In this document: positions 1 to 37,514 of the stretch, one piece after another
How positions within the stretch are numbered: the first letter of the stretch is position 1
Layout of the letters: each line of letters begins with the position of its first letter
The notes under the pieces: model-generated
Database searches by the model: none
Told to the model about the DNA's origin: nothing
The model's input: only the letters and a program-made list of their open reading frames with translations
Origin: a virus
Taxonomy: Duplodnaviria; Heunggongvirae; Uroviricota; Caudoviricetes
Length of the DNA stretch: 37,514 nucleotides
Direction: 5' to 3' (one strand)
Virus record (IMG/VR): IMGVR_UViG_2534681759_000011
Translations under genes and position numbers: made by a program

Positions 1-1002
1 TTACCCTCTATTGTCAAAAGGGTTCAATTCAACAGCAGCCTCTAAATGACCTGGAGCAAAATGCGCATAACGCATAGTCATTTTTATATCGCTATGCCCC
101 AGTATTTTTTGCAACACAAGAATATTTCCGCCCCGCATCATAAAATGACTGGCAAACGTGTGACGTAGCACATGAGTTAATTGCCCATCAGGAAGCTCGA
201 TCTTCGCTCTCTTAATTGCAGCGTCAAAAGCCTCATAACATGGTGAAAATAGCGCTCCTCGTTTTTTAGGAAGCATAGCCTGCAATTGAGGTGAAATCGG
301 TACAGTGCGGTTCTTCTTTCCTTTAGTTTTAACAAATGTGATTCGACCGGGCAGTACTTGAGATTGCTTTAATCCTTCTGCTTCACTCCACCGAGCACCA
401 GTCGCAAGCCCAATACGGACAACAACCCCCAAATCTTTATTCCGTGACTCATCACACGCAATCAGAAGGCGTTCAATCTCATCTACATACAGAAACGCCA
501 GTTCCTTTTCTTCCTCACGAAACTTGCGAATACCAGTCAGGGGGTTTTCACCAGACCACTCCCCAAGGCGCTTCAGTTCGGCAAAAACAGCATGTAGATA
601 TGACTGCTCGCGATTAACGGTTGCTTCACTAAGTTTTTTCTTCCCCTTGGGATTCCATTCTCCTGATAGCCTTCTTTCCCGATAAGTAGCAAACATATTT
701 TTGTCAAACTGCGAAGCAAATGGATCTCCCAGCCTGGAACAAATCGCCTCAAGTTTGACTTTGCGCTCTGCACCAGAGGACAAGGTTTTACCGTACATCT
801 CAAACCAACGAGCAATCAACTCAGAAAGACGAGGACCAGAACCATCTTGAAACTCGTCTCCAACTCTACTATTCATTAAACGGCGCTCATAAGAGAGCGC
901 CTCACTTTTTGTCGCAAACTGTTTACGAATGCGTTTTCCCGATGCCCCGTAGGGATAACATTCGCAAAGCCATTTACCTGATGGAATCTTACGAACCGAC
1001 AT
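1..1002 (-). CDS. int: Tyrosine recombinase (phage integrase), 333 aa, complete
   Basis: C-terminal catalytic box HVLRHTFASH...GHSDIKMTMRYAH (His-x-x-Arg and terminal Tyr of the R-H-R-Y tetrad); sits at the prophage end on the same strand as the repressor, as in P2-family prophages. Confidence 0.9.
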   Translation of the reverse strand: MSVRKIPSGKWLCECYPYGASGKRIRKQFATKSEALSYERRLMNSRVGDEFQDGSGPRLSELIARWFEMYGKTLSSGAERKVKLEAICSRLGDPFASQFDKNMFATYRERRLSGEWNPKGKKKLSEATVNREQSYLHAVFAELKRLGEWSGENPLTGIRKFREEEKELAFLYVDEIERLLIACDESRNKDLGVVVRIGLATGARWSEAEGLKQSQVLPGRITFVKTKGKKNRTVPISPQLQAMLPKKRGALFSPCYEAFDAAIKRAKIELPDGQLTHVLRHTFASHFMMRGGNILVLQKILGHSDIKMTMRYAHFAPGHLEAAVELNPFDNRG

Positions 1003-1007
1003 TTTAG

Positions 1008-1355
1008 TTACTTATCACATAAATCAAATGCAGCCTTAGTGACATCCCCCAGACTCTTTTTTAACCCTGGGGCGGCATCATTATCTAGCCAAAATGGATT
1101 ATTGTTATCTAACGGTAACGCACCAAATGTTTTACCTTTTATTCGAGCCAAACCTGTAAGTGCATATAACTTATTATCGTCAAAATTCATTACATAAGGA
1201 TTACCATCAAGACACTGTAATTGAACCTCATCAGTATTAAATGGCCACACCCCATTGAAACTCTCACGTTCAATGGTTTTAAAAGGCATTGCGACGGCGG
1301 AAAAAGAAAACATAGATAAAAAAGTAACTAATAGTTGAACCTTTTTAACTTTCAT
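1008..1355 (-). CDS. Small secreted protein with signal peptide, resembles the YebY/DUF2511 family (115 aa)
   Basis: N-terminal signal peptide MKVKKVQLLVTFLSMFSFSAVA; two Cys (C48, C113) that could form a disulfide; remembered similarity to E. coli YebY; AT-rich relative to the phage backbone. Confidence 0.55.
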   Translation of the reverse strand: MKVKKVQLLVTFLSMFSFSAVAMPFKTIERESFNGVWPFNTDEVQLQCLDGNPYVMNFDDNKLYALTGLARIKGKTFGALPLDNNNPFWLDNDAAPGLKKSLGDVTKAAFDLCDK

Positions 1356-1384
1356 ATCATTACCTCAATTTAGCTCAAGTAAGA

Positions 1385-2035
1385 TTACAAATTAAAAAAC
1401 GCTCTAGAAATGACACCGCCTACCAAACCCCCTACGCAGATAAAGAATATTATTTCTTTTGGATAAAGTCGGATTAATTCTGAAGCACGAAGTCGGACTT
1501 CTGGTAAGGTCGAACTCTCTGTGTGGCTTGATGCCGATTGTTGCTCTAACCACGACAATGCAGACTGTAACTGAGAACGAGTAAGATCGTTTAAACGTCC
1601 TGTACCGAAATTGATATGGCAATACCGCAGAAGTTTTTGTCGAAGTCCACAGTCTTCACTGTTACGTAGTAATAAACTTACAAGAGCCTTACAGGCATCA
1701 TGATCTTTACATCGCTCAAGCATTGCATGCAGAAAACTCTCCGCTGTTTTATATTGATTTACTGTCATATCATCAATACCAGCTACACCAATCTCCGCAT
1801 GTACTTTTTGCCAAATAATAAACGCTTCAGTATTGCTAGCTTCTGCAATAGCAGCAACCAAGCTATTTAGCTCCTTACGCTGAGCCTTAAGCAAAGGGCG
1901 ATCGTCATCATCATTATTCGAAGGGATTGCGATATTGACGGTATGAGAACCATCATATCGCTCTATCTGAATATTCTTTTCGTGAAAATCACGCCCAGCA
2001 ACGCGATTGTTTGAACCGTTTGAGTTGACGGCCAT
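1385..2035 (-). CDS. Tail-anchored membrane protein of unknown function (216 aa)
   Basis: Single C-terminal hydrophobic helix IIFFICVGGLVGGVI; N-terminus carries the motif NNRVAGRDFHE that matches the C-terminal tail of the upstream repressor; AT-rich; located between the repressor and int. Confidence 0.6.
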   Translation of the reverse strand: MAVNSNGSNNRVAGRDFHEKNIQIERYDGSHTVNIAIPSNNDDDDRPLLKAQRKELNSLVAAIAEASNTEAFIIWQKVHAEIGVAGIDDMTVNQYKTAESFLHAMLERCKDHDACKALVSLLLRNSEDCGLRQKLLRYCHINFGTGRLNDLTRSQLQSALSWLEQQSASSHTESSTLPEVRLRASELIRLYPKEIIFFICVGGLVGGVISRAFFNL

Positions 2036-2050
2036 GTCACCTCCCTACTA

Positions 2051-2455
2051 TCACCTGCCCTTAGTTTCGTTATAGTCACGACCAGCGATACGGTTATTAC
2101 CACCAGAAATATTTAACTCACGTCCTGATGGCTGAGTTTCCTTTTCACTGATCGCACCTTTTAAAGCCCCAATCACCGCGTTTTTCACATCTAACGAAGC
2201 TGCTCGAAAGCGAGTAATCAACTCCTGCTCATCATCGTTATAAGTTTCAGGTGAGTGAATTCCCAACACAACATACTGAACATCAAGGCCAAAACGAGAC
2301 AGCGCTGCCAAATACGCAGCATCAGGAAAGCTATCTCCTTTCTCATATCTAAGCTGAGTTAGCTTTTTGACTCCACCAATGTCGCTCATGGCAACTTGAC
2401 TAAGTCCCAATCTTTCCCTTTCCTCACGCAACCGCTGACCAATATCATTTTTCAT
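2051..2455 (-). CDS. HTH (XRE/Cro-C1 type) transcriptional repressor, probable immunity repressor (134 aa)
   Basis: N-terminal helix-turn-helix (QRLREERERLGLSQVAMSDIGGVKKLTQLRYEKG); transcribed divergently from the early operon and co-directional with int; too short to carry a LexA-like S24 peptidase domain. Confidence 0.75.
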   Translation of the reverse strand: MKNDIGQRLREERERLGLSQVAMSDIGGVKKLTQLRYEKGDSFPDAAYLAALSRFGLDVQYVVLGIHSPETYNDDEQELITRFRAASLDVKNAVIGALKGAISEKETQPSGRELNISGGNNRIAGRDYNETKGR

Positions 2456-2530
2456 ACAAAAACCTTGACAGGTATCTTTTTTGATACCAAAATGATTTCA
2501 CGAGCTATTAGATGATCACAATATACCACT
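2456..2530. promoter_or_regulatory. Divergent promoter/operator region between the repressor and the early operon
   Basis: TTGACA at 2465-2470 followed by the palindrome GGTATC-N6-GATACC (2471-2488); positioned like the P2 Pe/Pc switch region. Confidence 0.4.
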
Positions 2531-2737
2531 ATGAAACAAGTTCTTCACGATACCAGATCACGCATTCCGCGTAACACCGCCACAGGTCCAAGACTGGCAC
2601 TTCGGCTGTCCCTCGAGGAGCGAGCCGTCATTGATGAAATGGCAGCTAAAGAACAACGCTCATCCTCTAACATGGCGCGCATGATCTTCCTTCGCGGCCT
2701 AGAACTAACCCAGAAAGAACAAAACAAATCTTCCTGA
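2531..2737 (+). CDS. Small DNA-binding regulator, ribbon-helix-helix-like (68 aa), first gene of the early operon
   Basis: Pattern RLALRLSLEERAVIDEMAAKE typical of RHH (Arc/CopG-type) proteins; occupies the Cox/Apl/Cro position. Confidence 0.45.
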   Translation: MKQVLHDTRSRIPRNTATGPRLALRLSLEERAVIDEMAAKEQRSSSNMARMIFLRGLELTQKEQNKSS

Positions 2738-2753
2738 TCAAGAGGCTAGTGGG

Positions 2754-2957
2754 ATGTCAGGTATAACCATCAATATCAATGTGAATGCCCCCTATGTATC
2801 CCTGCAGAAATATGCAGAGATAACAGGTATCCCTCTTAATACATGCAAAAAGATGTTGGCTGACGGTCGAATTATTATCCGCCCCAAACGCGCCAAAATG
2901 GAAAAGCCTGAAGTAAACCTTGTGGCGATGTTAAAAGACGCTTTGACTAACAGCTAA
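2754..2957 (+). CDS. Small HTH protein, Cox/Apl/excisionase-like (67 aa)
   Basis: HTH segment YVSLQKYAEITGIPLNTCKKMLADGRI resembling AlpA/Xis/Cox-type winged helices. Confidence 0.45.
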   Translation: MSGITININVNAPYVSLQKYAEITGIPLNTCKKMLADGRIIIRPKRAKMEKPEVNLVAMLKDALTNS

Positions 2958-2978
2958 AACAATGAACAGAGCACCATC

Positions 2979-3329
2979 ATGAAAAAAAACGCTAATAATC
3001 CATACTCCAAATTTCGTAATGGCGTAGAACGCCATGTACACCACGTCGCTACCAGTGCATCACGTAGTAACAGTCGCTATAACCTGAACGAGACGCACGC
3101 AACACCGGATGGCCACGCTGTAAAACAAATCGGCGAGCATGCCTGGCTGATTGAGAAAGCTGGAATCGTGGTCCACAAATGCCCACGCAATCCGTTTACC
3201 GGAAACCGCATTTTTGCTCTAAGCAGTGGCGACAATCAGTTCGGGCAGGATTTCACATTATACGAAGCACTTCGCACGGTTGATCGTCTGCTTCGCGGGC
3301 AAAGTTTTATTAAACAGGCTGATTTATAA
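2979..3329 (+). CDS. Hypothetical early protein (116 aa)
   Basis: ORF in the early operon; function not recognisable. Confidence 0.45.
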   Translation: MKKNANNPYSKFRNGVERHVHHVATSASRSNSRYNLNETHATPDGHAVKQIGEHAWLIEKAGIVVHKCPRNPFTGNRIFALSSGDNQFGQDFTLYEALRTVDRLLRGQSFIKQADL

Positions 3330-4819: not shown

Positions 4820-5141
4820 GAAACCAGAACATGCACACACAAAAAAACCGCTTGCCATGCCGCAATCAGTCAGGTTACATTTCCGCTGCACCTCATAAAA
4901 CGGGTGCCGGGTTTCGCAGCCCGCTGACAAACGTAGCGCACAACCGCGCCAGCGGTTTTTTTGTGCGTACTGTATCGCCACGTCTTTTTCGCATCAGAAT
5001 TATGGTGGGGCGTACGGGGCCGACTTCGGTCGGGCCGGGTTCTGCGTTTGCCGGTACTGCGAACCTCGTACGTCTCGCCACCCACAGTTTCGCAGCTCTG
5101 GATGGTGAGTTTTCAAAACTTACACACGTAGAGGCCACACC

Positions 5142-5444: not shown

Positions 5445-7724
<2,280 letters not shown>

Positions 7725-7776
7725 ATTGACAACAGTCTGCCGCGACACCCTGAATGGCATAACGAAGTAAATCACT

Positions 7777-10660: not shown

Positions 10661-11620
10661 ATGAAAATTTGTATCGACGACGGCTCCACCAACATCAAGC
10701 TGGCATGGACTGAGAACGGCGAACGCCGCAACGCCATCAGCCCGAACAGCTTCAAGTCGGAATGGTCTGCGCCGTTCGGTGGCACGCATCCCGCGAACTA
10801 CATGCTTGATGGCGTGCGCTATGGCTTTGATCCGGTCAGCGATCGTTTTGTCCAGACGACTGACACGCAATACCAGTACAGCGATGTGAATGTAATCGCC
10901 ATTCATCACGCGCTGGTCAAATCAGGCATCACGCCACAGGAGGTGGATGTGGTTGTCACCCTGCCACTGAGCGAGTATTTCGACACAAACGCACAGCCGG
11001 ACATGGCCAACATCAACCGCAAAAAAGCGAACGTCATGCGCCCGGTGGAGTACCAGAACGGCGAAGCATTCACTATCCGTAACGTACGGGTTATGCCTGA
11101 ATCCATTCCGGCTGGCTTTAAGGCACTGGCTGACATGAGTCCGTTTGAATCCCTGCTGATTGTGGATTTGGGCGGAACCACGCTGGATGTGGCAAAGGTT
11201 CAGGGGCAGCTGGCAGGTATCAGCCAGGTGTTTTGCGATCCAAACGTAGGCGTTTCCCTGATGGCTGATTCCGTGCTGTCGGTGATGGCCACTAACGGTA
11301 TGCGTACCAGTCACCACATCGCCAATACCATTATTGAGCACCGTCACGATGAAGCCTGGCTGCGCCAGCACATTCACAATGACGCGCATTACAACAGCCT
11401 GATGGCGGTTATTCGTGAAAAGGAGGAGACACTGAAACAACGAGTGATCCGCGCGCTGGCGGGTTTTTCCGGTTACGGGCGGGTGATGGTTGTCGGTGGA
11501 GGGGCGGAGATTGTGGCACCCGCTATCCGCGAAGCCTGCGGAGTTAATGCGACTTTCATCGCGGACGGGGTGCCACAGTTTGCTCTGGTTAATGGGCTGT
11601 ACGCAATGAACAAGGAGTAA
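10661..11620 (+). CDS. parM: Actin-like segregation ATPase, ParM/StbA family (319 aa)
   Basis: Actin-fold motifs IDDGSTNIK (phosphate 1), LIVDLGGTTLDV (phosphate 2) and MVVGGGAE (adenosine); remembered close similarity to plasmid R1 ParM. Confidence 0.85.
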   Translation: MKICIDDGSTNIKLAWTENGERRNAISPNSFKSEWSAPFGGTHPANYMLDGVRYGFDPVSDRFVQTTDTQYQYSDVNVIAIHHALVKSGITPQEVDVVVTLPLSEYFDTNAQPDMANINRKKANVMRPVEYQNGEAFTIRNVRVMPESIPAGFKALADMSPFESLLIVDLGGTTLDVAKVQGQLAGISQVFCDPNVGVSLMADSVLSVMATNGMRTSHHIANTIIEHRHDEAWLRQHIHNDAHYNSLMAVIREKEETLKQRVIRALAGFSGYGRVMVVGGGAEIVAPAIREACGVNATFIADGVPQFALVNGLYAMNKE

Positions 11621-11624
11621 ACCA

Positions 11625-11936
11625 ATGACGACACCAACCAGAAGAATAAGTTTCTATCTGAAGCCAGCTGCCGTCAAGAACGAAGGAGAAGCATGCGCAT
11701 GGCTGGACAGCCTTACACCAGAAGCCCGCAAAAGCGGCCAACGCGTGGCTTTTCTGGCCGGGCTGGCACTTCTGAAGACGAATCCGGCAGAGGCTTACCG
11801 ACTGGCCGCATGGGCTGATGATGAGATGTTACCTGTGACACAAATCAGCTCAAAAAAGTTTGAAGCACAGTCTGCACCAGTGGCTAAGATAACCAGCCAG
11901 ATGGCTGGGAATATCCGGGCGTTATTTCCTGGGTAA
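11625..11936 (+). CDS. parR: ParR-like centromere-binding adaptor protein (103 aa)
   Basis: Immediately downstream of parM; N-terminal RISFYLKP and AFLAGLALL segments resemble R1 ParR. Confidence 0.55.
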   Translation: MTTPTRRISFYLKPAAVKNEGEACAWLDSLTPEARKSGQRVAFLAGLALLKTNPAEAYRLAAWADDEMLPVTQISSKKFEAQSAPVAKITSQMAGNIRALFPG

Positions 11937-24879: not shown

Positions 24880-26439
24880 ATGAGTACCACAACACGTAAA
24901 TTTAAAACCGTTATCACCAATACGGGTGCCAAAAAATTAGCTCAGGCAGCCGCGCCAGATGGTAAGCCTGTCCGCCTGACTCATATGGCCGTGGGTGACG
25001 GCGGCGGCACTTTACCCTCGCCAGACAGTAAGCAGACCCGTCTGGTGCATGAGGTGTGGCGACACACTGTTAATCGCGTCTTCCTGGACGCAACACATCA
25101 GAACCGCATTATTGCGGAGCTGGTTGTTCCTCCAGAAACGGGCGGATTCTGGATCCGGGAAATTGGTGTGTTTGATGAGCACGGCGATTTAATCGCAGTA
25201 GGCAATACTGCCGAAAGTTACAAGCCAACCGTTGCCGAAGGGTCAGGACGTGCACAAACATTTCGCACCATTCTGACCGTATCCAGCACTGCCACTATGG
25301 CGCTTACCGTGGATAACACCATGGTAATGGCCACAGTGGATTACGTGGATGACAAACTGAAAGAGCATGAACAGTCACGACGTCACCCGGACGCCTCGCT
25401 GACCGCAAAAGGCTTTGTTCAACTTAGCAGCGCCACTAACAGCACATCTGAAACGCTGGCTGCGACACCTAAGGCTGTTAAGGCAGCATATGACCTGGCT
25501 AATGGCAAATACACCGCACAGGACGCAACCACTGCGCGGAAAGGGATAGTTCAGCTCAGTAGCGCCACTAACAGCACATCTGAAACGCTGGCTGCGACAC
25601 CTAAGGCTGTTAAGGCAGCATATGACCTGGCTAATGGCAAATACACCGCACAGGACGCAACCACTGCGCGGAAAGGGATAGTTCAGCTCAGTAGCGCCAC
25701 CAACAGCACGTCTGAAACGCTTGCGGCAACGCCAAAGTCTGTTAAGGCGGCATATGACCTGGCTAATGGCAAATACACCGCACAGGACGCTACCACTGCG
25801 CGAAAAGGGATAGTTCAGCTCAGTAGCGCCACTAACAGCACATCTGAAACGCTGGCTGCAACGCCGAAAGCAGTAAAGGCCGCATATGACCTTGCTAACG
25901 CAAAATATACCGCTCAGGACGCAACGACGGCACGAAAAGGGATAGTTCAGCTCAGTAGCGCCACTAACAGCACATCTGAAACGCTGGCTGCGACGCCAAA
26001 AGCTGTTAAGGCGGTAATGGATGAAACGAACAAGAAAGCGCCCTTAAACAGTCCTGCACTGACCGGAACGCCAACAACGCCAACTGCGCCAAAAGGGACT
26101 AATAATACTCAGATCGCAAGCACGGCTTATGTGATGGCCGCGATTGCCGCACTTGTAGACTCGTCGCCTGACGCACTGAATACGTTGAACGAGTTAGCGG
26201 CGGCGCTGGGAAACGACCCGAATTTTGCGACCACCATGACTAAAGCGCTTGCGGGTAAGCAACCGAAAGATGCCACCCTGACGGCGCTGGCCGGGCTTGC
26301 TACTGCGGCAGACAAGTTTCCGTATTTTACGGGGAATGATGTCGCCAGCCTGGCAACCCTGCAAAAGTCGGGCGGGATATTCTTGCGAAATCGACCGTTG
26401 CCGCTGTTATCGAATACCTCGGTTTACAGGAAACGGTAA
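24880..26439 (+). CDS. H: Tail-fibre protein H, constant N-terminal part; frame breaks near 26366
   Basis: N-terminus MSTTTRKFKTVITNTGAKKLAQAA… matches remembered P2 gpH; contains 132-bp tandem repeats; the conserved continuation KVGRDILAKSTVAAVIEYLGLQETVN is in the -1 frame from 26364. Confidence 0.75.
   Translation: MSTTTRKFKTVITNTGAKKLAQAAAPDGKPVRLTHMAVGDGGGTLPSPDSKQTRLVHEVWRHTVNRVFLDATHQNRIIAELVVPPETGGFWIREIGVFDEHGDLIAVGNTAESYKPTVAEGSGRAQTFRTILTVSSTATMALTVDNTMVMATVDYVDDKLKEHEQSRRHPDASLTAKGFVQLSSATNSTSETLAATPKAVKAAYDLANGKYTAQDATTARKGIVQLSSATNSTSETLAATPKAVKAAYDLANGKYTAQDATTARKGIVQLSSATNSTSETLAATPKSVKAAYDLANGKYTAQDATTARKGIVQLSSATNSTSETLAATPKAVKAAYDLANAKYTAQDATTARKGIVQLSSATNSTSETLAATPKAVKAVMDETNKKAPLNSPALTGTPTTPTAPKGTNNTQIASTAYVMAAIAALVDSSPDALNTLNELAAALGNDPNFATTMTKALAGKQPKDATLTALAGLATAADKFPYFTGNDVASLATLQKSGGIFLRNRPLPLLSNTSVYRKR
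25411..26010 (+). repeat. In-frame tandem repeat, 132-bp unit, about 4.5 copies, inside the tail-fibre shaft
   Basis: Repeated 44-aa unit ARKGIVQLSSATNSTSETLAATPKAVKAAYDLANGKYTAQDATT; unit starts at about 25411, 25543, 25675, 25807 and 25939. Confidence 0.85.
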
Positions 26440-27384
26440 ATCAGGCTTCTGGTGCATTACAGAAAAAACAGAACGGCGCAGATATTCCAGGAAAAGATAC
26501 CTTCACCAAAAATATTGGTGCCTGCCGCGCATATAGCGCATGGCTGAATATTGGTGGCGATAGTCAGACCTGGACAACCGCACAATTCATTTCGTGGCTG
26601 GAGAGTCAGGGGGCATTTAACCATCCTTACTGGATGTGCAAAGGCTCATGGGCTTATGCAAACAATAAGGTCATTACAGATACAGGTTGCGGAAATATTT
26701 GTCTTGCAGGTGCTGTGGTGGAAGTTATTGGCACTCGCGGCGCAATGACCATACGCGTTACTACGCCGAGTACATCCAGCGGTGGCGGAATTACTAACGC
26801 TCAATTCACCTATATTAATCATGGTGATGCTTATGCTCCTGGCTGGCGACGAGACTACAACACGAAAAACCAGCAGCCTGCATTTGCTTTAGGGCAAACA
26901 GGAAGCAGGGTTGCAAATGATAAAGCTGTTGGCTGGAACTGGAATAGCGGCGTTTATGATGCAGATATCAGTGGCGCATCGACATTAATCCTCCACTTTA
27001 ATATGAATGCGGGGAGTTGCCCTGCTGTACAGTTCCGCGTGAATTATAAAAACGGCGGTATCTTTTATCGTTCAGCGCGTGATGGTTATGGTCTTTGAAG
27101 CTAACTGGTCAGAGTTTTACACCACAACCCGCAAACCCTCTGCGGGGGATGTTGGTGCATATACGCAGGCAGAATGTAACTCAAGGTTTATTACAGGTAT
27201 TCGCCTGGGCGGTCTGTCATCTGTTCAGACATGGAATGGTCCCGGCTGGTCTGACAGGTCAGGTTATGTCGTTACGGGTTCAGTTAACGGAAACCGTGAT
27301 GAATTAATTGATACAACTCAGGCAAGGCCAATTCAGTATTGCATTAATGGAAGGTGGTATAACGCGGGGAGTATTCAATTATGA
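26370..27384 (+). pseudogene. Tail-fibre variable C-terminal segment, expressed orientation; reading frame broken
   Basis: Open in the -1 frame from about 26364 to 27098, then continues in another frame from 27079 to 27384 ending [13 protein letters not shown]; glycine-rich distal-fibre character. Confidence 0.5.
26407..26432. promoter_or_regulatory. gix/hix/cix-type recombination site (left inverted repeat of the invertible segment)
   Basis: TTATCGAATACCTCGGTTTACAGGAA; close to the remembered Mu gix consensus and an inverted copy of the site at 29336-29361; lies inside the tail-fibre reading frame. Confidence 0.75.
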
Positions 27385-27914
27385 TGCACTTAAAAACATT
27401 ACTGCTGGCAACCCTAAAACAAAAGAGCAATACCAGCTAACGAAACAATTTAACATCAAATGGCTTTATTCAGATGATGGAAAAAACTGGTATGAGGAAC
27501 AAAAGAACTTTCAGCCTGATACGTTGAAAATGGTCTATGACCGTAACGGCGTTATTATTTGTATTGAAAAGGATGTTTCAGCAATTAATCCAGTAAGGCG
27601 CAAGCGTCGTTGAATTACCTGATATTACAGCAAATCGCCGGGCTGATATTTCGGGTAAATGGATGTTCAAAGATGGCGTAGTGATAAAGCGAACTTATAC
27701 CGGGGAAGAGCAGAGGCAGCAGGCAGAGAATGAAAAGCAAAGCCTGTTGCAACTTGTCAGGGATAAAACCCAGTTATGGGACTCACAGCTACGGCTGGGC
27801 ATCATTTCCGACGAGAGTAAACAAAAATTAACAGAGTGGATACTCTTTGCGCAGAAAGTCGAATCTACAGACACTTCCAGCCTGCCAGTAACATTTCCCG
27901 AACAACCTGAATGA
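27381..27914 (+). pseudogene. Tail-fibre assembly chaperone, expressed orientation; split by frameshifts
   Basis: Pieces [25 protein letters not shown]… and …[22 protein letters not shown]… parallel the intact minus-strand paralogue but lie in different frames; the A-run at 27392-27396 and the region near 27592-27600 separate the frames. Confidence 0.5.
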
Positions 27915-27942
27915 GACAAGGCCCGATAGCGGGCCTTAATTT

Positions 27943-28470
27943 TTATTCAGGCTTTTGTGGCCATTCAGGATTTGCCGTATCCACACGGCTGACCAGAACA
28001 CTGTAGCGTTCCCATGCTTCCAGTCGTGTGCGCTCCTCGTCTGTTGCCATATTCAGCCTGGCAGCGCGTTCCAGTGGCTGGATGACTGATTCAGTTTCGG
28101 AAAGCAATGCGGCCTTTTGTGATTCGGCCTGTTGTTGCTGTTCGTCTGCTGTATAAATCCGCTTAACCACAGTTCCGTCCTTAAACATCCACTTCCCTGA
28201 ATCATCGGCACGACGATTGACTGTTATATCTGGAATCTCAACGACACTAAAGCCTTCGGGATTAAGCGTTGAGGCATCTTTGGTTATGGCAACAATAATA
28301 TTATTTTCGTCGTAAACAATCTTTATGGTGTCTTCCTGAAAGCTATTTACTTCCTCATACCAGTTTTTACCGTCTTCTGTATATAACCAGATAACATCAA
28401 AATTCTTTGTTAGCTGATATTGCTCTTTTGTTTTTGGATTTCCTGACTTAATATTTTTTAAATGCTGCAT
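27943..28470 (-). CDS. Tail-fibre assembly chaperone, alternative copy inside the invertible segment (175 aa, intact)
   Basis: [24 protein letters not shown]… typical of tail-fibre assembly proteins; silent in the present orientation. Confidence 0.8.
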
Positions 28471-28473
28471 AAT

Positions 28474-29335
28474 TTACACCTGTGCTACGTTATACCATGT
28501 GCCATTGATGTATTTTTGTATTGGTCTGAAGATGGCTTCATCATCGCCATCTACTTCACCAATGATTCTTAATCCGGTAATTGCGTGTCCGGCTTTTTCA
28601 TAACGACCACCACGCGCCATCAATTGAACAACTCGCGTACCCAGGCGAACATCTTTTACATAGCGTGAATCAAAATTCCCCCAGTTGCTGGGCTGTATCT
28701 GACCGTTAACAGAAAATATTACCGAGTTATCTGTATTTCGCTGGCTATAGAAATGCCATCCTGCCTCATCGCCTAACTCTGCAACTACTGGACGGGTTGA
28801 AGCACCCCATAAATTAAACGTTACATTCTTTGTGGAGGTGTTGGAGCTGGATAGCGAGATTTTTTTACATCACCTGCCTGAATGTTTTTAAAAGCAATAG
28901 CAACTCCATTCTGAAAGCGGAATACTCGCTGACTATTAGCGTAAACATCAAGAATACCGTCTCCATTCTGTTTAAATCCGGTATCATTATCACCAAGAAC
29001 AATAGAGCTACCACCTAACGCATTCGTCGTACCAACTCCAAGGCTGCCATTAATGACGGCATTAACAAGAATATTTAGTGCATCCCATTTCAGCGTCATC
29101 AGGTCTTTTGTTGTGGTGCCCTGGCGGCTTCTCCATTTGAAATATTCATTGCCGTTGTCGCCTGTTTCTAAACCAACATGAATGAATCAGTATCGCTGTC
29201 GGCATCATTTTTAAATCCAATCTTCGCCCAGTCAGTATTTCGAATCCAGGCAAGGATTGAGTCGTTTTCAAAAGTAAGCCCACCGGACAAGGTATCGCCA
29301 TTCTTTTGCACGGCGTTCCTGGCCCTGTTTACCGT
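28474..29335 (-). pseudogene. Alternative tail-fibre C-terminal segment (P2 H-like), promoterless and frameshifted
   Basis: Minus strand encodes LGLQETVNRA…GLTFENDSILAWIRNTDWAKIGFKNDAD…, …LETGDNGNEYFKWRSRQ…TLKWDALNILVNA… and a C-terminus INGTWYNVAQV, matching remembered P2 gpH, but in three frames; breaks near 29164-29180 and at the T7 run 28860-28866. Confidence 0.6.
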
Positions 29336-29361
29336 TTCCTGTAAACCGAGGTTTTAGATAA
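29336..29361. promoter_or_regulatory. gix/hix/cix-type recombination site (right inverted repeat)
   Basis: TTCCTGTAAACCGAGGTTTTAGATAA, near-identical to the remembered Mu gix sequence; immediately upstream of the invertase gene. Confidence 0.8.
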
Positions 29362-34430: not shown

Positions 34431-35614
34431 CAGGCACCTCCCAGCACCGCAAATGCAGGTTCAAAGTATTCATCAGTAAACGTCTGGTAAAGCTCCATGT
34501 CTTCCAGTGGCGGAACAGGCGTATATTTGTAGCGAATACGCACACGCCCCTGACGTAAATCCGTGGTGCTGTTATCCACCACGTCATACCAGCACTCCGC
34601 GCCAATCAGTTTCCCGGCAGTAACCAGTGAATCCAGTTTTGCCCTGATGGCACTGATAACATCCTTCACGTTCGCAGGCGTCAGTGGACTGTCGATGGTT
34701 TCAAACTGCGCTTCTGCAATTGAATCAGCCAGCACCTGTGCGGTTCGGGTATACACCTCAAAGATGTAGGCGTTCGTTTCCGGTGTGCGGTTGCCCCAGA
34801 AGCGGAACCCGTTGCGACGAATAATGGTCGTGATTTCTTTGTTGTTGAGGCTGTTGGCATCACTGTCTTCGGCCTGCAACGACCAGAACACATGCCTGGA
34901 CATTCCCAGCACATTTTTAACAGGAACGTTGGACAGCGATTTGTGCCAGCCCTGCTCATGGTCAATGTACGCACGAAGGCCGCACGCATAGGCAGGCGCG
35001 GGGAACGTTTCGTTTTTGCCACTTTTCGGGTTGTAGGCGATGAAGTCCGGCCATAAGAGCATCACCTCACGTTCGTTGAATTTCTGGCGGTAGGTAATCG
35101 CCTCAGCCATCGTGTTACAGCCGTGACATGAGGCATACACAAACGCGCGCAGTTTACCCGCAATCACGCACAGGGATTTTGTTACCGCCTCCGTGTCCAG
35201 CTCCGGCGCGGCCAGAATACGCGGACGGTATCCGATGCTTTCATCCTGCTCTGCAACAAGCAGCGCATACATCCCCGTATAGCTGCCGTCAGATTCAGAA
35301 CCACCGATAACCAGTTGATCCTGCGTTTTTCCGTCTTCTTCTTTGTGTTCAGCCACGCGAACGACGATCACCTTTGTGCTCACCTGGTCTGCGATGGCCT
35401 TAAGCGCACGATAAAGCGTCCCCGTTGTCCCGCATTTTCCCAGCACGTCATTGACGCGGGTCAGCAGTGTGGGCTTGTTCAGCGGGAACAGCTTCGCGTC
35501 CGCATCATCCGCCGTTGCCACGATACCGATAACGCTGGAATCAACATCGTTAATCGCTGTTACCAGGTCGGTATTTTCCGTAACACGGGCACCATGAAAA
35601 CGAGTTTCACTCAT
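34430..35614 (-). CDS. FI: Contractile tail sheath protein, P2 gpFI family (394 aa)
   Basis: Size and remembered gpFI similarity. Confidence 0.9.
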   Translation of the reverse strand: MSETRFHGARVTENTDLVTAINDVDSSVIGIVATADDADAKLFPLNKPTLLTRVNDVLGKCGTTGTLYRALKAIADQVSTKVIVVRVAEHKEEDGKTQDQLVIGGSESDGSYTGMYALLVAEQDESIGYRPRILAAPELDTEAVTKSLCVIAGKLRAFVYASCHGCNTMAEAITYRQKFNEREVMLLWPDFIAYNPKSGKNETFPAPAYACGLRAYIDHEQGWHKSLSNVPVKNVLGMSRHVFWSLQAEDSDANSLNNKEITTIIRRNGFRFWGNRTPETNAYIFEVYTRTAQVLADSIAEAQFETIDSPLTPANVKDVISAIRAKLDSLVTAGKLIGAECWYDVVDNSTTDLRQGRVRIRYKYTPVPPLEDMELYQTFTDEYFEPAFAVLGGA

Positions 35615-35771
35615 AGCTTCAGCCCCTTGTATCCGTTAAATGATTCGGCAACAATCATCACCCACCACGCGCGTAATCTCACCCCTGCGCCGTTCTCCCG
35701 CCACGGCGACAACAAAAAGCAGTAACCCCCTCCGCACGCACATGCGACCATGCCGCACAGGGAGGGAGCAG

Positions 35772-36881
35772 ATGACCGACACCACCATGCAATTGCTCAG
35801 TCAGGGCACAGACCCCGTAAAAATGCCGGATTTTGATATTCTCGCGGAGGGTAAAACGCTGTCAGGCGTGGCAGAGCGCCTGATGAGCCTGTCACTGACC
35901 GACAACCGGGGATTTGAGGCGGACCAGCTCACCATCACGCTGGATGATGCGGATGGTCAGTTGCTGCTACCGCCACGGGGCGCGCGCCTGACGGTTCTCA
36001 TTGGCTGGAAAGGAGAACCGCTGACAGAAAAAGGCACTTACATTGTTGATGAAATCGCTCACGAAGGACCGCCGGACAGGCTGACTGTTTCAGCCAGAAG
36101 CGCAGATTTTCGGGATGAATTTAACGTTAAACGTGAGGTGTCCTGGCATGATGTGACCGTTGAGCGTGTGGTATCCGCCATCGCTCATCGGTATGGTCTG
36201 AAACCGCAAATCAGCGAAATGCTGATGGATATCGAAATCGACCACGCCGACCAGACCGAAGAAAGCGACATGTCCTTCCTTACGCGCATGGCGGAAATGC
36301 TGGGCGCAATCACCACGGTAAAAAGCGGCAATCTGTTATTCATCATGCCCGGCGGTGGCGTGAACGCACAGGGCCAGCCGTTGCCATCGTTCGCCATCAC
36401 ACGCAGCAGCGGCGATCGCCATCAGTTCCGCATTGCTGACCGCGAAGCGTATACGGGGGTACGCGCTTACTGGCTTGATCTTAATTACGGGAAAAAGAAA
36501 AAAGTCAGCGTGAAACGCCGCAAACCGCCAAAACCGAAAAAAGAGAAAAGCAGCAGCCGTGAAGGTGATTATATGGAAGGCGCGGAAGGCAATGTGTTTG
36601 TGTTACGCAAGACTTATCAGAACGAGCAGGCAGCAAGACGCGCAGCGGCGGCAAAGTGGCAACAACTACAACGCGGAGCCGCATCATTCTCCATCACGCT
36701 GGCACGTGGACGAGCAGAACTCTACCCCGAAATGCATGGCACGGTAACAGGATTTAAAAGCGAGATTGATAATCAGGACTGGATTATTGCAAAAGCCGGG
36801 CACACCATTGATAACAGCGGCTTTACCACGCAGCTTGAGCTTGAGGCAAAAATCCCGGAATGGATAGCGGAAACAGAGTGA
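35772..36881 (+). CDS. D: Tail protein D, P2 gpD family
   Basis: ATG at 35772 behind GGGAGGGAG; annotated ORF begins 132 nt upstream in frame; divergent from FI. Confidence 0.8.
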   Translation: MTDTTMQLLSQGTDPVKMPDFDILAEGKTLSGVAERLMSLSLTDNRGFEADQLTITLDDADGQLLLPPRGARLTVLIGWKGEPLTEKGTYIVDEIAHEGPPDRLTVSARSADFRDEFNVKREVSWHDVTVERVVSAIAHRYGLKPQISEMLMDIEIDHADQTEESDMSFLTRMAEMLGAITTVKSGNLLFIMPGGGVNAQGQPLPSFAITRSSGDRHQFRIADREAYTGVRAYWLDLNYGKKKKVSVKRRKPPKPKKEKSSSREGDYMEGAEGNVFVLRKTYQNEQAARRAAAAKWQQLQRGAASFSITLARGRAELYPEMHGTVTGFKSEIDNQDWIIAKAGHTIDNSGFTTQLELEAKIPEWIAETE

Positions 36882-36923
36882 GCAACTTAGAATAGCGGCA
36901 GCACCACGTTAAGGGAGGTCGCT

Positions 36924-37184
36924 ATGTTCCGTTGTCCGCTTTGTGGCGCATCTGCCCGTATCCGCACCAGTCGTCCGGAAAATGATTCAAACACCGTGCG
37001 GCAAAAGTATTACCAGTGTAACAACCTGGAATGCGGCGTATGCTTCTCAACACTGGAAGCTTTCCATAAATTCACATCGAAACACGCCTCCGGCGTTCAC
37101 TCATCAGAAGGTATCCCGTGGCATGAGCTGCCAGCTTCACACAGGGGAAACAATCAGATGAGTTTGCCTTTACCTCAGAATTAA
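36924..37184 (+). CDS. ogr: Ogr/Delta-family zinc-finger late-gene transcriptional activator (86 aa)
   Basis: MFRCPLCGASARIRTSR…YYQCNNLECGVCF: Cys4 zinc-finger arrangement of Ogr; RBS GGGAGG. Confidence 0.85.
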   Translation: MFRCPLCGASARIRTSRPENDSNTVRQKYYQCNNLECGVCFSTLEAFHKFTSKHASGVHSSEGIPWHELPASHRGNNQMSLPLPQN

Positions 37185-37373
37185 CAGGCAGAATTGCCGG
37201 AGTAACAAAAAAGCGATAGATTACGTGCGGGTGCCTTTCGGCTGATGGTCGGAGGGAATACCCGAAGGCCGGATGTGGAAAGGCCCCGGAAAACATTTCT
37301 GTTTAACCGAGGCCCTAACCCGTCAACCTAGCAAGTGATAGGTTAGCGCCTCTCCAACAAAGGAGCAAGCGCT

Positions 37374-37514
37374 ATGTCGCAAAAATCGCTTACGGCCATC
37401 ACGTTCTGCGTGACGGTAATCCTCATCATCTGGATGCTGCACGGTTCGCTGTGTGAAATACGGATGAGCTTCTGGGGAGCGGAGTTTGCGGCGTTCTTAC
37501 AGTGTAAGCAGTAA
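37374..37514 (+). CDS. Hok/Gef-family type I toxin (46 aa)
   Basis: MSQKSLTAITFCVTVILIIWMLHGSLCEIRMSFWGAEFAAFLQCKQ: one transmembrane helix followed by the Hok hallmark SLCEIR; RBS AAGGAG; GC-rich structured leader 37200-37373; below the ORF-track length threshold. Confidence 0.7.
   Translation: MSQKSLTAITFCVTVILIIWMLHGSLCEIRMSFWGAEFAAFLQCKQ

Follow-up and report, generated by a model that had tools for sequence, protein, structure and literature searches.

The stretch of DNA analyzed here, called the window, is 37,514 nucleotides long. Judged by its sequence, it is a P88-like prophage (Xuanwuvirus, Peduoviridae, P2-like), and it is 98% identical to phage P88. Toward its right end lies ogr (36924-37184, plus strand), an 86-aa open reading frame (ORF) that scores 52.4 bits against the Pfam family Ogr_Delta. 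After a spacer of 189 nt comes a hok toxin gene (37374-37514, plus strand), which starts with ATG and encodes 46 amino acids; its RefSeq product is WP_000078920.1, 'Hok/Gef family protein'. The TAA stop codon of hok forms the final three bases of the window. The region from ogr to hok is 96-98% identical to phages P88, Chuche, and P88_4B11, where the same gene is annotated. From 35600 to 37514 there is 100% identity to more than ten E. coli chromosomes, and WP_000078920.1 is the RefSeq product in two of these, ETEC-2264 (L004) and 99-3165 (L005).

The Hok peptide (MSQKSLTAITFCVTVILIIWMLHGSLCEIRMSFWGAEFAAFLQCKQ) carries the motif SLCEIR at residues 25-30, a hexapeptide that is identical in R1 Hok. 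Its hydrophobic helix has its best 17-residue stretch at residues 6-22, with a mean Kyte-Doolittle value of 2.58. The peptide matches Pfam PF01848 HOK_GEF over residues 7-44 with 30.1 bits (E 3.7e-7; the gathering score is 22) and PHROG 251 ('MokW-like host killing') with 82.8 bits. Residues C12, T14, L26-C27-E28, and E37 fall on positions that are conserved in more than 80% of Hok peptides. The original prediction, a 46-aa Hok/Gef ORF with a single membrane helix and the SLCEIR signature, is confirmed by these matches, and on profile evidence its family assignment is correct. Among named proteins the nearest is HokA of E. coli K-12, with 43% identity; identity to R1 Hok is 39%. The best NCBIfam match is the equivalog NF007290 HokA, at 35.8 bits against a cut-off of 89. 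The protein is best described as HokA-like, not HokA.

The hok reading frame is intact and, by its substitution pattern, under purifying selection. Its dN/dS ratio is 0.20-0.46, and the length of 46 codons is kept in relatives down to about 50% amino acid identity. With a cut-off of 80% identity, 1548 of 5426 complete E. coli genomes contain the locus; it occupies 2013 places, with up to 7 copies per genome. Because of its conserved length, its dN/dS ratio, and this wide occurrence, the ORF is beyond what chance would produce. Decayed copies differ from the window locus; one on an E. albertii plasmid has a stop at codon 2 and several deletions.

For genome annotation this is a routine result. 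The locus is ordinary and already known: it is named in RefSeq and in phage records, and its peptide cluster has been catalogued. In the Hok catalogue of Escalera-Maurer et al. (bioRxiv 10.1101/2025.08.07.668861, 2026), cluster 72 is a high-abundance cluster, and the window Hok is one residue (V15A) apart from its representative 72_1621. The form found in Stx phages is 72_1589. Both 72_1621 and 72_1589 are among the 45 homologs tested for toxicity, and the three constructs named as non-toxic come from other clusters (10.1101/2025.08.07.668861); going by these reported results, 72_1621 was toxic. The catalogue covered the coding sequence only, with Mok, Sok, and the mRNA ends outside its analysis (10.1101/2025.08.07.668861).

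The window begins at the end of the integrase coding sequence and stops at the end of the hok coding sequence. Its abrupt end can be explained by a prophage call that was trimmed at coding sequence boundaries. Circular permutation, with the window start continuing the 3' UTR of hok, was considered as well and was rejected, as no match was found. Comparison with the empty site of K-12 places the true ends elsewhere. The att site is a 124-bp direct repeat comprising the 3' part of the tRNA-Leu gene leuZ and the 3'ETS. Both copies lie outside the window, the left one at 2744-2867 of a second record (L022) and the right one at 6858-6981 of the ETEC-2264 record (L004). The right copy begins 943 nt downstream of the hok stop codon, and homology to the empty K-12 site resumes there. 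The repeat contains the 3' 55 nt of leuZ and the whole 3'ETS-leuZ small RNA together with its terminator. Because the whole small RNA is included, a lysogen has two copies of 3'ETS-leuZ.

One reading of the locus has the prophage end on its right side at hok and puts attR within 37185-37373. It draws on the window stopping at the hok stop codon and on hok being the last gene after ogr. This reading has practically no chance of being right. The 124-bp repeat maps to the point where empty-site homology returns, 943 nt past hok; the packaged genomes of P88 and related phages contain hok; the spacer is homologous to the hok leaders of unrelated phages and plasmids; and the position of the window end is accounted for by cutting at coding sequence boundaries. 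Since the right att copy lies so far beyond the hok stop, hok is internal cargo and not a prophage boundary. Of the two possibilities first proposed, the attR within 37185-37373 therefore falls, and the other, that the cassette belongs to the element and not to the host chromosome, stands: it lies inside the att repeats and occurs in free phage genomes. On the right side, the prophage call behind the window ends too early by about 1.07 kb and splits a regulatory RNA. Between hok and attR are a 282-nt ORF on the opposite strand and a second hok leader, which is decayed (L004 6621-6722). This leader lies about 700 nt beyond the window end, has no hok ORF after it, and can be aligned over about 110 nt to 37208-37317.

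The full-locus RNA was read from ETEC-2264, which is identical over the region (L004 coordinate = window coordinate - 31599). A weak hok promoter is predicted at 37194-37222 on the plus strand, with -35 TTGCCG (37194-37199), a 17-nt spacer, and -10 TAGATT (37217-37222). Relatives whose left flanks are unrelated have their hexamers in this same place: TTGCCC/TAGATT in Stx phages and approximately TTGAAA/TAGAAT in IncI1 plasmids. A consensus promoter scan of the locus called none, since the hok promoter scores 8/12 and the antisense promoter described below 7/12 against a threshold of 9/12; both predictions draw on conservation and positional homology only. Transcription of hok should start near G37229, going by the start of the Rfam leader alignment and the +1 of R100 hok, GGCGCTTGAGG. 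No terminator was found between ogr and hok in a scan, so read-through from ogr into hok is possible, though hypothetical. Inspection by eye for an Ogr-type late promoter (a TGT-N12-ACA dyad) upstream of hok found none.

The leader matches Rfam RF01794 'sok' on the hok-sense strand (37229-37384) at 47.3 bits, below the gathering score of 59; the E value is 1.8e-9 in a 615-nt search, and the match is absent from a gathering-threshold scan of the window. In practice this family models the hok mRNA leader. At 37229-37376 the leader folds with -60.3 kcal/mol (z -3.9), which bears out its description as highly structured. The accompanying description as GC-rich barely applies, as the spacer has 53.4% GC against 52.3% for the window.

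The full-length RNA would start at 37229 and end at a terminator outside the window, a length of about 408 nt; in the ETEC-2264 locus it folds with -182.3 kcal/mol (z -7.85). Its 5' end is a tac-like element, GGGUGCCUUUCGGCU (37229-37243, plus strand), which can pair either with a 3' fold-back element or with a ucb-like box. In the minimum-energy fold of the full-length RNA, nucleotides 1-15 pair with GGCCGAUAAGGCACCC (L004 5965-5980), 50-65 nt past the window end, and the terminator follows this fold-back box. The fold-back element, a 3' hairpin, and the terminator all lie 10-120 nt past the window end and are seen in genomes that are identical over the region. A fold-back element cut off by the window end had been suspected, and it is indeed present in ETEC-2264. 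The 15-bp closure of the 5' and 3' ends (helices 1-2) is 98-100% paired in 15 aligned loci, with pairs that are invariant or changed on one side only.

A consensus fold of these 15 loci is 97.7% paired, a value that drops to 36-45% if the 3' partners are shifted by 1-3 columns; the structure was scored on the same 15-locus alignment from which it was derived. Compensatory double changes occur in 13 pairs, most of which lie in two places: a long-range helix that joins the leader to the 3' UTR, and the 3'-UTR hairpin right after the stop codon. The long-range helix (helix 6) joins 37325-37338 to the 3' UTR at L004 5949-5962, 34-47 nt past the window end. Of its 12 pairs, 5 show compensatory double changes, and it covers part of the predicted Sok target. 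The ucb-like box GUGGAAAGGCCCC (37275-37287, plus strand) has GAGGCC as its partner in the full-length form, where GGCCCC (37282-37287) forms helix 5 of the consensus.

Two further elements involve the start of the toxin gene. The hok Shine-Dalgarno (SD) sequence, AAGGAG at 37360-37365, lies 8 nt upstream of the ATG and is sequestered in a predicted hairpin (37345-37373, plus strand), in which AGCGC pairs with GCGCU and the anti-SD sequence CUCU (37350-37353) pairs with GGAG (37362-37365). These helices (8 and 9) are 99-100% paired in the 15 loci, and the local stability of the hairpin is -14.2 kcal/mol, compared with -13.8 for its R100 counterpart. Within the coding region, UUUGCGGCGU (37485-37494, plus strand) pairs with the start-codon region AUGUCGCAAA (37374-37383); this helix (10) has 10 pairs and is 99.3% paired. 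An analogous complementarity, between CCAUGAAA and UUUCAUGG, can be read from the sequence of R100 hok.

RNA that stops at the window end, or else at the 3'-UTR hairpin, is predicted to fold otherwise. Its 5' end pairs with the ucb-like box at 37275-37287, and GAGGC/CUAACC (37309-37320) pairs with GGUUAG/GCCUC (37341-37352), leaving the hok SD largely open. The element GAGGC-C-CUAACC (37309-37320, plus strand) is the counterpart of the mok SD of R1 and hokC, according to Rfam and three-way alignments. In the truncated form, all 12 pairs of the tac/ucb stem (helix 1) are invariant in the 15 loci, and the GAGGC/GCCUC pairing is 99.4% compatible, with wobble-compatible changes only. Overall the truncated fold is 98% paired; its columns are almost invariant, so that covariation speaks neither for nor against it. 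In R1, a two-state scheme of tac/fbi, tac/ucb, and SD/dcb pairings has been described (PMC9841398), and the predicted layout of the window locus matches it.

A Sok-like antisense RNA is predicted on the opposite strand. Its putative promoter (37340-37368, minus strand) consists of -10 TAACCT (the complement of 37340-37345), a 17-nt spacer, and -35 TTGCTC (the complement of 37363-37368), which overlaps the hok SD region. The -10 is invariant in the 15 loci, and the -35 is TTGCTC, TTGCCT, or TTGACT in relatives. In a three-way alignment the position of this promoter coincides with that in the R100 and hokC loci. The predicted RNA (37276-37333, minus strand) is about 57 nt long, starts at about 37333, and has a tail of about 17 nt, a hairpin, and a UUUCC end. 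The hairpin is the complement of about 37281-37315, and the 5' tail is single-stranded and variable. Folds of the antisense strand give a tail and a hairpin in all 15 loci, with an upper stem that varies by lineage yet stays paired. The tail is complementary to the most variable part of the leader, a pattern that would fit lineage-specific recognition where several hok loci share a cell.

Comparison with chromosomal hok loci, proposed as a check, was run on K-12. The predicted Sok is collinear with the annotated SokC and has in common with it the stem base GCCUCGG...CCGGGGC followed by a U-rich tail. The 5' end of SokC is 49 nt upstream of the hokC ATG, compared with about 42 nt for the Sok predicted here. 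The predicted Sok also agrees with SokC in layout. An in-frame upstream mok is present in both hokC and hokA; the window has an in-frame TAG instead, within the invariant box AGGTTAGCG.

The hok/sok locus of R1/R100 resembles the one predicted here in most of its parts. It has a small toxin with SLCEIR, and the tac element at its 5' end can pair either with a fold-back box in the 3' region, after which a terminator comes, or with a ucb-like element. The boxes GAGG and GCCUC are present, the hok SD is masked by CCUCU, and the start codon is paired with the distal coding region. Its antisense -35 abuts the hok SD, and its antisense RNA consists of a tail, a hairpin, and a U-rich end. The differences are that R100 has a mok ATG at +116 whereas the window has none, that the toxin is 52 aa rather than 46, that the nucleotide sequences have diverged beyond the reach of blastn, and that R1/R100 hok/sok serves plasmid maintenance whereas the window locus is phage-borne.

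The absence of mok can be examined by looking for an ATG, GTG, or TTG upstream of hok, in any of three frames, within a stop-free stretch that spans the hok start. Applied to 20 loci, this test recovered its positive controls, the R100 mok ATG at +116 (as published) and the mokC of K-12 hokC (-57). It found no mok frame in the window and none in about 18 of 20 relatives. Taken by set, there is none in 10 of 12 relatives and nothing convincing in five further loci, Salmonella included; pC-Ec2-KPC, Stx2_6804, and S. diarizonae each have a single isolated candidate, and the positions of these are not homologous. The leader had been expected to hold both mok-like and sok-like elements. The sok-like part of this expectation is supported by the promoter and hairpin conserved in 15 loci, and the mok-like part is not, as the search for an overlapping frame was negative in the window.

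A mok could still be hidden, either behind a non-canonical start codon in the leader or in the 21-codon ORF that begins at ATG 37273 and ends 35 nt before the hok ATG. The GAGG counterpart of the mok SD is kept in the window lineage, and ATG 37273 is invariant in the 15 aligned loci, is preceded by GAAGG, and in one relative, pC-Ec2-KPC, opens an ORF that runs into hok. Both conserved features sit in conserved RNA pairing partners, which explains their conservation. In the window, the sole frame that is open across the hok start has no ATG, GTG, or TTG at SD distance after GAGG, and inspection by eye found no convincing single-base variant of ATG there either. The upstream ORFs (37245-37331 and 37273-37338) are conserved neither in frame nor in length, and their ends vary from 1 to 61 codons in relatives. 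Because hairpin-loop indels shift its end in this way, the ATG 37273 ORF appears to be free of coding constraint. Dependence of the locus on such a concealed mok is very unlikely.

Taken together, the locus is probably an intact type I toxin-antitoxin cassette of the hok/sok type. Starting at 37194 and ending about 120 nt past the window, it would be about 440 bp long. A P88-like prophage integrated at the tRNA-Leu gene leuZ carries it as cargo, with ogr on one side and attR on the other. The computed part of this explanation consists of the intact ORF, the 5'-3' closure, the leader/3'-UTR helix, the anti-SD hairpin, and the antisense promoter and hairpin, whose sequences all intact relatives conserve. 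The steps of the mechanism, from the inertness of the RNA through to the action of Hok, are modeled by analogy on R1 hok/sok. The full-length hok RNA would be stable and inert. Slow trimming of its 3' end to the 3'-UTR hairpin would take off the fold-back element, and the freed 5' end would re-pair with the ucb-like box. GAGGC/CUAACC, released in this way, would capture the anti-SD strand GGUUAG/GCCUC, so that the hok SD opens and the Sok target becomes exposed. As long as the prophage is transcribed, the short-lived Sok-like RNA would pair with 37276-37333 and silence or destroy the trimmed hok RNA. Once the supply of Sok ends, whether through prophage loss, shut-off of transcription by an infecting phage, or induction, Hok would be made and would damage the inner membrane.

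How Hok would be translated deserves attention. In R1, mok start-codon mutants lose toxicity, and no Hok is made without mok translation (PMC9841398). Alternately, then, the locus may be a relic that is translationally dead: its RNA elements and ORF would look intact while the toxin is never made without mok, as has been proposed for several chromosomal hok loci of K-12. The loss of toxicity in the R1 mutants fits such a relic, as do the lack of a mok frame in the window and in most relatives and an SD hairpin that is as stable as its R100 counterpart. Set against this, the dN/dS ratio is low (the 0.20-0.46 given above), relatives keep the length of 46 codons, the RNA helices are preserved by compensatory changes, and the 1548 genomes as well as free phage genomes still contain the cassette. 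Truly decayed copies, such as the E. albertii copy and the leader-only relic at L004 6621-6722, look otherwise. A dead relic is therefore unlikely.

For an intact cassette in a lineage without a mok frame, translation of Hok would have to begin at the hok SD itself or follow a route that has yet to be seen. A tentative proposal, to which somewhat less than an even chance is given, is that cluster 72 retains the whole hok RNA switch without mok, and that the 3'-trimmed RNA turns on Hok translation directly. The former mok SD (37309-37320) would capture the anti-SD strand (37341-37352) and free the hok SD, and the unpaired stretch at about 37317-37344 may be a ribosome standby site. Repression by Sok would then come from its binding over that stretch and from cleavage by RNase III, with no leader peptide to be blocked. 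If this is true, leader-peptide coupling is optional in the hok family, and the locus offers a natural system for studying repression by Sok without mok. Specialists might follow up one feature only, namely that mok is consistently missing from a hok switch that is complete in other respects.

Candidate roles for the cassette are prophage retention, abortive infection or exclusion, and help with lysis. Exclusion by R1 hok/sok has been reported against T4. Help with lysis is known from hokW-sokW of the Stx2 prophage Sp5 (Takada et al. 2021, PMC8621323), which aids lysis and phage release after induction and needs RNase III and Hfq to do so. No other phage hok is known to have had its role tested. 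Both loci are prophage-borne, and the PHROG family name 'MokW-like host killing' is common to both. Identity of the two was considered and rejected by primer and sequence comparison: HokW has 51 aa, begins MKQQKAM..., and is assigned to the HokD-like cluster 35. The Stx-phage copy that resembles the window locus (81-84% nucleotide identity) is separate from hokW and lies beside lom/bor.

Homology between the window locus and unrelated replicons starts at about 37194-37208 and ends either just past the fold-back box or past the terminator. The same 370-430-bp unit adjoins lom/bor in Stx-converting lambdoid phages, at the identity just given, and occurs in IncI1 plasmids (83-84% identity) and elsewhere. 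On this comparison of sequences, P2-like phages, Stx phages, and plasmids share a cassette that travels as one block of about 400 bp. A scan of species-representative genomes returned only 5 loci, three of them under non-enteric labels, and added little diversity.

Several minor observations were made in the collection of relatives. Identical or near-identical copies of this enteric hok locus are found on contigs labeled as a Planococcaceae metagenome-assembled genome (L025), Vagococcus sp. (L026), and Xanthomonas pisi (L028); these are probably contamination or mis-binning in the assemblies concerned. In STEC1012, beside serS, two Hok/Gef genes stand in tandem about 330 nt apart, each with a fold-back box (L018 1-29 and 363-503). 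Some megabase records labeled 'plasmid' resemble pieces of chromosome.

Other features of the prophage can be noted as well. In the early region, two Rfam families score above their gathering thresholds: isrK at 4888-4962 (plus strand, 69.6 bits) and, directly downstream, C4 antisense RNA at 4998-5085 (plus strand, 80.4 bits). This pair suggests an antisense immunity module of the P1/P7 type in a P2-like prophage. A 1.96-kb element of the IS21 family (IS100, istA/istB) occupies 5777-7731, just upstream of the gene for the replication endonuclease. The prophage of ETEC-2264, near-identical in other respects, has the same IS at another place, beside the tape-measure gene.

At about 10661-11936 (L024 8973-10248, offset +1688), right after the replication endonuclease, the near-identical prophage of ETEC-2264 has two annotated products, ParM and a 'plasmid partitioning/stability family protein'. 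This pair is the ParMR-like cassette that hok had been suggested to complement. The element that carries it is nevertheless a prophage with an integrase, integrated at leuZ, and not a plasmid. A link between the two cassettes is plausible, though hypothetical.

Finally, the segment at 26407-29361, which holds the tail fibre and fibre-assembly genes, is inverted relative to ETEC-2264. A gene for a small recombinase lies beside it, and the segment resembles the invertible host-range segments of the G/Cin type.
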